A stretch of DNA of 64,000 bases from Leucoraja ocellata (taxonomy: Eukaryota): contig JAWMAR010000009.1 of NCBI GenBank assembly GCA_036785375.1, forward strand, positions 9,424,001-9,488,000, written 5' to 3'. Each line of letters begins with the position of its first letter. Within the stretch, counting starts at the first letter, position 1. Both the position numbers and the translations under genes were made by a program. Below the pieces are notes generated by a model. The model was not told the origin of the DNA. It searched no databases and saw only the letters and a program-made list of their open reading frames with translations. Below are positions 10,401 to 13,400 of this stretch, piece by piece.

Positions 10401-13400
10401 CCCAGTGGTTAAACTGCTGACAGCACCTTCCACATCACTGCATCAGTATGGCAGCACTGCAGATGCTGGTAATGTGCATGCGGTAAATGAATGCTGACGC
10501 CACCCCCCCCCCCCCTCCCGCCTGAAATAATCTGGAGCATTAGTCTGGATTGCGCTGGGTCTGGACTGCTGCCTGCATTTGCTACAACAGGACTTGACTC
10601 TCCTCACTCGCCTTGTCTAGATGCAGCGAACCATGCCCTCTGAGGTGCAAGAGGTTCTGCAAGATCAGCAGCTGGATCTCTTCAAATTTTGCTTAAACAT
10701 TTAAAAAATGTTTAAATAGAATGGAAATTACAGTTTTGTGAATGTACATGTAACTTGCTGTTTCCCATTTTGTTCCCCCAGAACCCTGAAGGAAAATTGA
10801 CAGATATGATCAGTTTTTACACACTCCCTTCCACCATCATGCACCATCCTGTTCATAAGAGCCTGAAAGCTGCTTACTCTTTTTATAATGTCCATACCAA
10901 GACTCCCCTTGTTGACCTCATGAATGATAGCCTCATCCTTGCTAAGTCGGTAAGTGGCATCCACTTCACACCTTGCCTAAACAAACTCGCCTATCATCAC
11001 TTCTTTGTTTAAGGAAGAACTGCAGATGCTAGAAAAATCGAAGGTAAACAAAAATGCTGGAGAAACTCAGCGGGTGAGGCGGCATCAATGGATAGAAAGA
11101 ATAAGCGACGTTTCAGGTTTTGAGCCTTCTTCAGACTGATGTCGGGCGGGGGGGGTAGGAAAAATAAAGGAAAAGGCAGAGACAGTAGGCTTGTGGGAGA
11201 GCTGGTAAAGGGGAGGGGAAGGAGGGAGAAAGCAAGGACTATCTGAAATTAGAGATGTCATGTTCATACCTCCAGGGTGTAAACTAACCAAGCAAAATAT
11301 GAGGTGCTGTTCCTCCAATTTGCGCTGGGCCTCTGGCAAGGAGGAGGCCCAGAACAGAAAGGTCAGATTTGGAATGGGAGGGGGAGTTGAAGTGCTGAGC
11401 CACTGGGAGATCGGGTTGGTTAGTGCGAACTGAGCGAAGATGCTTAGCGATCGCTTCAGCACTTGGGATGAAACGAATAACCTCGCATCAGAAAATGCAA
11501 GCCTTTCTGTGTGTCGTTCCAAAAGCAGTATATTTGAATAGCATGAAGCTGCCTTAATTTGCACTATTTCTGTGTCTGAGTTACAGCCACATCGGACACT
11601 TATACCTGTTACTGTAAGGGGGGTAGCTTCAATGCCATTATAAGATATGCATCAGAATTGCTAGATGGAGATATCTCAGAAGTTGGAGTGGTGAAAAAGT
11701 CACCCTCATCTTCTAATTGAGACACTTTGCTCCTGCACCAATGCATGAATATCAGGCTGTCGGTAGTCAACTGACCACCTCATCAAAGAGCAATGGGGTG
11801 ACTACAAATGGAGCTGGAAAAATATATCAATCGGCGACATCAGAAATGCATTCTGCTCTAGATCTTTAATAGTGATGCACTGGACTCCGTGTAGCCAGTT
11901 ATCACCAGATGCCAAGAGTGTTTGGGAAGGCAGTAGAACAATACATAAATCGATGCCCTCCACTTTCTCACATTCCCCTCCACCTATCAGTTATTTTCAG
12001 TTTTATTTTACTAGGACTGGTGTGTTAGTTTGACTCCAGTCCCACTTAACCATCATTTCTGCAATGGGAAGGTTCATAATTCCTCATTACATCCGATACT
12101 TAACCTTGCTGCAGATTCATAAACCATGCTGAATTAGCTGGACCAGAATAGCTCCCTGTAAGAGCTCTGCAGCAGGGATTGGGGGGCATTATTAACTCAT
12201 CCTCTCAGTAAAGGGGCATAGCAGTTTCAAAATACCACTGTGAAATCTGGATTTCCAAATATTGGTAAATCAAGCCAAAACTTCAGAACAGATCAGGGAA
12301 ATGATTTGGAGGAAGTGAGGAGTGCAGATTCAGTGCTGGGTGCAGATTCTGAATGTCTTCTGACCTGGTGGGAAACATAGTGAGGATAACGGCCAGAAGC
12401 AAACTCAACAATAATTGTGATGTGATGAGACTGGTGGATTTACCTGAGCATTGTGCTGTTACTGTGCTTACACTGAATGCAACTCAGTATTTTGTGGTAT
12501 GTGATAGTTGAGTACTAAATCCTCCATGCTCTTCAGTTTGGTCAATCTAAATTGCTCTGTGTCCACAATCAGATTGCATCAGCCAATCGACCATGCTTAA
12601 ACTCACGAGTGCCTAGGCTCACAAATGCTTGGGCAATATCAGGACAGCTCCCACTGAATACAGCACAGCAGGGGTGGATTGTTAAACTTGGCTGATCTTG
12701 TTGGAAGTGAAGAAAATGTAGATTGTGATACCTTGACTTTGTCTTCAGCATGTTACTCAAGTTTTATTAAAGCTAGCAAGCTTTACTCTGTATGTGCCGA
12801 TGTTATTACCTGCCGTGGGTATATTTGATGGGATGGGATTTGAGGAGTTTTGCTTTGATCTATCTTATTTGACGGATACTGGAATACATAAAGTAGAAAA
12901 TATTTATCCCATCCTTTAAATGGTGTAACAAGCCAGCTGTTGGCCAGATCCAAATATTATCCATAAAGATTGAAGTGTTCAGCACTGTGTGAAAATGCGG
13001 GCCAGCTTTGCCCTGTGGCTGATATTCATATTCTAACATTTTCACTTTCATTCAACAGAAAGGTTTTGATGTTTTCAATGCACTGGATCTAATGGAAAAC
13101 AAGACCTTCTTAGAAAAGCTGAAATTTGGGATTGGTGATGGCAACTTGCAGTATTATCTGTACAATTGGAAGTGCCCCAGCATGGCTCCTGAGAAGGTAA
13201 CCAAGAGCAAGCTGTCTGAACCTGTATTGCCTCTCACTATCTGATTATTTATTGACTGGGAGTTTATTTCCAACTCTTCGCAGAGGGAAAAAAAACAAAT
13301 GCTGGAGGAACTCAGCGTGTCATGTAACATCTGCGGAGGGAAATGGTCAGACAGCATTTTGGGCCGGGACCTTTCTGATGGAAAAGGGGGAGAAAGCAGA

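Follow-up and report, generated by a model that had tools for sequence, protein, structure and literature searches.

A short repeat that opens with a predicted minimal hammerhead ribozyme recurs throughout the stretch of DNA analysed here (the window; 64,000 nucleotides, G000:C9:9424001-9488000, in a genome of 3.44 Gb). An earlier note on this DNA took the repeat for a non-autonomous, retrozyme-like family derived from Penelope-like elements (PLEs). The question is to what the repeat belongs, how its short copies were inserted, and whether the hammerhead has a part in their insertion.

The repeat family and its hammerhead motif

A profile built from natural copies of the repeat finds 29 family matches in the window (Table 1) and 592 copies, amounting to 4.3% of the bases, in 127 random 10-kb stretches outside it (1.27 Mb); on reversed sequence, it finds none in the first 78 of these stretches and the window. 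The random stretches were drawn from the 86 largest contigs, so that the sample, and with it the genome-wide extrapolation of about 1.6 million copies, is biased to large contigs. The roughly 15 copies counted by the earlier note understate the family. Family sequence is indeed present at all 17 of the coordinates given there, but several of these hold mere fragments (at 25538, an inverted arm of only ~20 bp). The bare hammerhead core pattern, with 8 matches in the window against 2.99 expected and 3 of 100 shuffles reaching 8, is by itself weak evidence for a family. The family is nevertheless real, and it is known in kind and in arrangement. PLE minimal hammerheads are described from pLTRs, including those of the fish elements Xena, Poseidon and Neptune (PMC4209133), and those of metazoan PLEs share with this family the core CUGAnGA/GAAA/UH, an extra base before G10.1, the pair G10.1-C11.1, a palindromic 15.2-16.2 without helix III, the location in the pLTR, and the occurrence mostly as dispersed single truncated copies. 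The 2-bp helix I is as reported for D. virilis, whereas the Schistosoma families in the same account have helices I and II of 4-5 and 7-8 bp, compared with 2 and 4-5 bp here. One supplement of that paper that was searched contains no shark or skate terms. A literature search, with most subscription journals and Repbase/Dfam outside its scope, retrieved no report of the family in cartilaginous fish or of ribozyme-less PLE tail arrays.

Table 1. Copies of the repeat and associated relics in the window, and arrays of the 66-bp derivative elsewhere in the genome.
Feature	Position	Strand	Remarks
Minimal type I hammerhead motif (predicted)	11104..11137	-	sequence and pair check
Rest of element 5' UTR / pLTR end	11006..11103	-	includes ~27-bp optional tail; insertion 3' end
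Pyrimidine-rich element 3' UTR	11140..11241	-	GIY-YIG stop to hammerhead (~100 bp)
Frameshifted C-terminal GIY-YIG relic	11242..11460	-	5' truncation point of 11107 copy; tblastn E 7e-14
Older GIY-YIG relic upstream of 2603 copy	1992..2288	+	tblastn: 50% aa identity to L316 ORF, E 1e-19
Copy split in helix II by DNA-transposon insert	2603..3005	+	277-bp insert, 2622-2898
Decayed fragment cluster	13291..13597		13291-13376 -; ~13480 -; 13528-13597 +
Solo short copy	15205..15331	+	G12 lost (CpG)
Solo short copy	20785..20885	+	youngest cluster; 96% to intact unit
Tail fragment	22082..22128	-	
Copy with short inverted arm	25349..25555		copy 25349-25494 (-); arm near 25538
5'-truncated copy	26196..26275	+	
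Solo short copy	29543..29639	-	
Solo short copy	35844..35965	-	
Solo short copy	40173..40297	-	older cluster
Hammerhead-only fragment	42302..42340	+	~40 bp matching
5'-truncated copy	43016..43113	+	
Two copies	44607..44867	+	44607-44718 and 44764-44867; 46 bp between
Decayed fragments	45945..46114		45945-46017 -; 46001-46114 +
Old decayed copy	55410..55503	+	
Solo short copy	56467..56595	-	
Head-to-head pair	57754..57926		57754-57800 -; 57812-57926 +
Head-to-head pair	58293..58524		58293-58422 -, long tail; 58427-58524 +, short end
Decayed copy	60841..60902	+	
Head-to-head pair of 5'-truncated tails	61200..61355		
Head-to-head pair	61601..61785		youngest cluster; hammerhead 5' half lost
Head-to-head pair	61876..62076		61876-61935 -; 61947-62076 +
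66-bp arrays	L194:1885-2353	-	
66-bp arrays	L213:5619-5908		
66-bp arrays	L223:8757-8904		
66-bp arrays	L281-L312		
66-bp arrays	G000:C1:20.0-20.6 Mb		

In the copy at 11107 the hammerhead core lies exactly where the earlier note had placed it, on the minus strand. It reads AGU (11137-11135), CUGAAGA (11134-11128), a single A, the helix II region (11126-11115), GAAA (11114-11111), CGUC (11110-11107), and GCU (11106-11104), with the predicted cut after the C at 11107. The minimal type I anatomy claimed for it is also present, both in the order of the motifs and in the palindromic ACGU that replaces helix III. That this is a good copy was not borne out: the core and three helix I pairs are kept, but helix II (G-U, G-C, C.C, U-A) is broken by the C.C mismatch, and the third helix I pair depends on a U at a position that is C in 87% of the 310 anchored copies. 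None of the 15 anchorable copies in the window has an intact motif. Genome-wide, 62,557 exact intact motifs were counted (control, 0); this number and the extrapolated copy number compare with 2,000-9,000 reported in PMC4209133.

Among the 592 sampled copies, 228 were scorable, being anchorable without gaps and keeping the 5' core, and just 26 of these look intact, in agreement with the earlier view that most copies are dead. CpG decay, which had been held responsible, accounts for 124 of the 228 through changes in core G12 or the palindrome, but another 78 are broken otherwise. The conserved core (CUGAnGA, GAAA, and UH in type I order) is found in the intact element described below, at 11107, and in 101 of the 228. 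The extra nucleotide between 9 and 10.1 is A in 91%, G10.1-C11.1 is the commonest pair (144/228; the 11107 copy has G-U instead), and CG is the commonest palindrome at 15.2-16.2, where helix III is missing. The copies fall into eight sequence clusters that diverge by 4.8-25% from their own consensus. All eight keep CUGAnGA, helix II GGGU/RCCC, and the 2-bp helix I, loop 2 and the downstream sequence are variable, and the two oldest have lost the CpG at G12 in their consensus. Conservation of the motif amid a variable loop 2 would fit selection on master elements, and the inserted copies decay neutrally.

Covariation in helices I and II, whose lack the earlier note had named as one of two refuting observations, is absent above independence. 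In the 228 copies, each pair is formed as often as independence of its two positions would predict, the covariation score of 16 chosen copies is reached by 431 of 500 shuffles, and between clusters only one-sided changes from U-A to U-G occur, with no two-sided covariation within this genome. Neither the window nor the intact element has an Rfam match to a hammerhead family, and the hammerhead does not appear in the minimum free energy folds of monomers (z 0.37 and 0.15). In the youngest cluster and at L316:8964-9008 (-), the predicted cut site is mostly GUU for GUC, the loop is UUCG, and helices I and II contain U-G wobbles. Each of these features would weaken cleavage.

The window holds several other features beside the repeat. 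The insert within helix II of the 2603 copy carries inverted repeats at its termini, with a target duplication of 8 bp, and looks hAT-like. At 29151-29362 lies a near-perfect, MITE-like hairpin of ~210 bp, part of which recurs at L064 beside a repeat copy, and a host exon with GT at its end (~1280-1446, +) presumably encodes part of an N-myristoyltransferase. Further PLE relics (GIY-YIG and post-RT region) occur at 30573-30728 (+) and 36824-37005 (-), with no repeat detected within 600 bp.

The parent element

The GIY-YIG relics that had been noticed upstream of the 2603 and 11107 copies were both borne out by tblastn. Walking upstream from such a relic leads to the RT and on to the 5' end of an element, which is the same repeat again. 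L191:2332-6287, a full-length but decayed copy, is bounded on either side by the repeat as direct terminal repeats, and L192 consists of a partial tandem and an inverted 5'-truncated copy. L316 (G000:C1:8663500-8673000, minus strand) comprises two head-to-tail full-length units of 3,985 bp that are 99.9% identical. One unit contains an intact ATG-initiated ORF of 1,234 codons (RT and GIY-YIG), which is frameshifted in the other. In the window, 11217-11450 (-) has 79% identity to the intact L316 unit, and the sequence of the 11107 copy behind its hammerhead matches the sequence that precedes the L316 ORF. Since the same ~130 bp flank the full-length L191 and precede the intact ORF of L316, the repeat is the non-coding 5' UTR of the element, duplicated at its 3' end as the pLTR end, and the Penelope-like origin proposed for it is confirmed. 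The first ATG of the L316 ORF lies ~36 nt after the tail and ~165 nt after the hammerhead start.

In Pfam searches the L316 ORF matches RVT_1 (E 1.5e-6) and GIY-YIG (E 0.013), both under the curated cut-offs. Its translation reads DKG, YIDD, a CX4CxxC linker between RT and EN, and a C-terminal CCHH GIY-YIG; the linker also appears in the L157 and L193 translations. A linker zinc finger (CX2-5CxxC) is described as a mark of Neptune/Nematis elements that Penelope and Poseidon lack (10.1101/2021.04.23.441226). The parent would therefore be an EN+ PLE of the Neptune/Nematis type, with the clade judged by the linker motif alone, and the label Poseidon was dropped. The Neptune/Nematis elements of that report share with this one the RT with C-terminal GIY-YIG, CCHH and linker zinc finger, and also the partial tandems, the inverted 5'-truncated copies, and the 30-40 bp tail on one end. 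They differ from it in that the element here has a long proline-rich region and an extreme surplus of insertions ~100-130 bp long whose 5' edge is fixed. The proline-rich region of L316 precedes the RT and is internally repeated, and the tandem is very young.

The element displays the familiar PLE traits of 5' truncation, partial tandems, an inverted 5' copy, and a one-sided tail. Coverage along it drops away from the repeat, with 223 matches there, 34 immediately upstream, and 2 at the RT. Among nine independent loci that contain the 5' part of the element, four have partial-tandem UTR upstream, two begin at positions 8-9, and three are truncated further in; given this spread, the full-length start is only loosely pinned.

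Origin of the short copies

Short copies outnumber those linked to GIY-YIG by about 16 to 1 (34 of the 592 copies have GIY-YIG upstream, two of them doubtful). Among the 592 copies, 3' ends are most frequent around two profile positions, ~105 and ~131. Immediately before the hammerhead, 124 of the 310 anchored copies border on unique flank and 101 on an inverted partner, while 53 keep UTR-like sequence and 27 GIY-YIG there. Direct repeats of at least 8 nt flank 17 of 55 young solo copies, compared with 0.9% of shuffled pairs. In the sample of all ages the 5' junctions spread over 13 positions. For the youngest cluster the edge was counted by hand in the first 100 of 43,682 exact matches listed, using a pattern that excludes G at the first place; 43 of these matches keep the 3' UTR context and 57 do not. 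Of the latter, 18 begin exactly at the G that lies two bases ahead of CUGA; for another 21 the start is one to three bases earlier, for one it is a single base after that G, and for 17 it is later. The predicted cleavage site shows no excess of 5' ends, with 21 copies at positions 32-36 compared with 23 and 18 in the adjoining 5-base bins. Nor is there a clear excess of an untemplated cap-G (G precedes A in 14% of 132 copies with unique flanks, and in 4 of 8 of the youngest-cluster matches listed).

Many copies are paired: 234 of the 592 (40%) belong to head-to-head pairs, which outnumber tail-to-tail pairs by 118 to 12. The arms of a head-to-head pair differ by a median of 16%, compared with 26% for random pairs, and the junctions are heterogeneous across loci. 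Just one arm carries the long tail in 87 of 123 pairs, those of the window included (60 expected, p 8e-7). A one-sided tail of 30-40 bp in inverted pairs is described as a PLE insertion signature (10.1101/2021.04.23.441226). A MITE-like family of palindromic pairs was ruled out, as the junctions differ from locus to locus. At L079, L117, and L118 a palindromic pair has an identical junction and shared outer flanks, and probably lies inside a larger repeat.

Quite probably, the repeat is the terminal piece of an autonomous Neptune-type PLE and most of the short copies are one-off run-off insertions. Run-off cDNA is the simplest account of the two fixed 3' ends, the sharp 5' edge, and the lack of an excess at the cleavage site. 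The RT of the element would prime 100 or 130 nt into uncut mRNA and run off the 5' end of the RNA, which would leave a short one-off insertion of the first 100-130 nt of the mRNA. Judging from the DNA junctions, transcription would start at the 5' edge, with the G two bases before CUGA; the TCAGT found there is, we assume, initiator-like. The longer copies that contain GIY-YIG might stem from priming at the downstream repeat of a read-through or tandem RNA. Cutting by the hammerhead would require a dimer or the protein of the element, and it is likely unneeded for insertion. In Anolis, hammerhead mutants are reported to leave TPRT in vitro unaffected (PMC11167929). The element studied there, Poseidon_Ac from Anolis carolinensis, resembles the present one in the hammerhead at the pLTR-ORF junction, in two internal RT start sites that bound the tail and match the two 3' ends here, and in a pattern of uncut RNA as template with no reads ending at the cut site. 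It differs in that the ORF here has its ATG beyond the tail, which leaves the repeat non-coding, and in the CX4CxxC linker.

Alternatively, the short copies could be 5'-truncated because the RT stalled at the TCAG-T-CTGA palindrome on the border between UTR and hammerhead, or they could be solo repeats left by recombination. The palindrome is present in all clusters, the junctions of older copies spread over 13 bases, the full-length L191 has direct terminal repeats, and solo repeats so formed would also keep target-site duplications. However, a 4-bp hairpin is a weak stop, and 18 versus 1 starts at adjacent bases among the young matches listed is sharper than expected. Recombination cannot yield 40% of the copies in head-to-head pairs with one-sided tails, and the youngest cluster is mostly short already. 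We consider this origin of the short copies unlikely.

A self-propagating SINE- or retrozyme-like family, whose 130-bp copies would be transcribed from an internal promoter and moved again by the PLE protein acting in trans, would explain both the numerical excess of short copies and their sharp 5' edge. Rotifer pLTRs alone are reported to mobilise DNA in trans (PMC3846280), and one small old cluster has no GIY-linked member among 13. However, seven of the eight sequence clusters do include GIY-YIG-linked members, as is not expected of an independent lineage. Among the 592 copies (1.27 Mb) there are 22 head-to-tail chains, four of which contain the 5' core region in two units, and none in three. 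The junctions of inverted pairs are heterogeneous, with both outer flanks clearly common to only one trio of loci, and the Anolis RNA is described as needing sequence beyond the tail for TPRT (PMC11167929), which has no counterpart in the solo copies here. This explanation therefore appears distinctly improbable. Poly(A) reads from a related organism represent both strands equally (3,518 and 3,359), as would a sequence transcribed passively within RNAs of the host, with no pile-up of ends at the cut site in a library that is poor for cut ends and circles. Metazoan non-LTR retrozymes resemble the repeat in being PLE-related, non-coding, equipped with a type I hammerhead, and dispersed as monomers, but they are described with complete hammerheads in consecutive tandem units and with circRNA (PMC7229834; 10.64898/2026.07.22.740005), whereas hammerhead units are not arrayed here and such arrays as were found, of 66-bp and 54-bp units, have no catalytic half. 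Given the autonomous parent, the missing hammerhead arrays, the lack of covariation, the GIY-linked clusters, and the varying junctions, the classification as a non-autonomous retrozyme-like family is not supported, and the repeat family is very probably not a retrozyme.

It is very improbable that the 5' edge is a splice acceptor and that the short copies stem from spliced RNA. A pyrimidine tract and CAG do precede the hammerhead (TCTGA) in almost every GIY-linked copy, although the UTRs differ widely, but starts at G outnumber starts at AG by 18 to 8 among the matches listed, the opposite of exon ends, which would favour AG. A Drosophila virilis intron that ends at helix I is described as a precedent (PMC4209133), yet no conserved donor follows the GIY-YIG here (~35 GT and ~29 AT among distinct copies) and exact junctions of GIY end to hammerhead number only six genome-wide, and the 3' UTR was accordingly rejected as the site of an intron.

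A 66-bp derivative and what the family tells about PLEs

What is new here lies outside the window, in tandem arrays of a 66-bp unit that corresponds to profile positions 26-92 and begins at hammerhead G12, at the foot of helix II, with a common junction. The exact 28-base unit junction occurs 23,712 times genome-wide (control, 0) and not at all in the window; arrays were found in 2 of the 127 random stretches (L213 and L223) and in L194. Among the matches listed, the junctions are unevenly distributed on contig C1, with none below 18 Mb and dozens of arrays at 20.0-20.6 Mb. The arrays at 25 loci, all from the latter region, contain 1-10 junctions each; their flanks are mostly dissimilar, and the average difference among 78 internal units is 1.0%. 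In 17 of the 25 loci the first unit is preceded by the 5' half of a hammerhead, which often belongs to an older cluster. A longer spacer that contains inverted remnants of the hammerhead is common to ten loci, and some of the 17 upstream halves are part of it; this shared spacer indicates that a master array is being copied and weakens the case for fresh reiteration at each site. The unit retains the cut site (GUC) and the priming hairpin of the tail and has no CUGAnGA. The arrays are a young, dispersed, non-autonomous derivative that often lies within older copies of the repeat, and their growth may also be that of a DNA-level minisatellite. That they represent a young ribozyme-less retrozyme, present as thousands of short arrays that insert into older copies, whose RNA would be cut in trans by intact hammerheads and copied as a circle, or would be reiterated by the telomerase-related RT with helix II as template boundary, seems unlikely. 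A second type of array, found at L220:4919-5092, repeats a 54-bp unit that derives from the same cluster and corresponds to profile positions 39-98.

How PLEs prime and finish reverse transcription is still poorly understood. Both steps are constrained by this family, whose insertions number more than a million and combine 3' ends fixed at two sites with a 5' edge precise to the base and a tail on one side, and the intact and very young L316 element supplies the protein and RNA with which they can be tested. The family also bears on the role of PLE hammerheads, because its inserted copies were not made from hammerhead-cut RNA and its youngest non-coding derivative has dispensed with the catalytic half.
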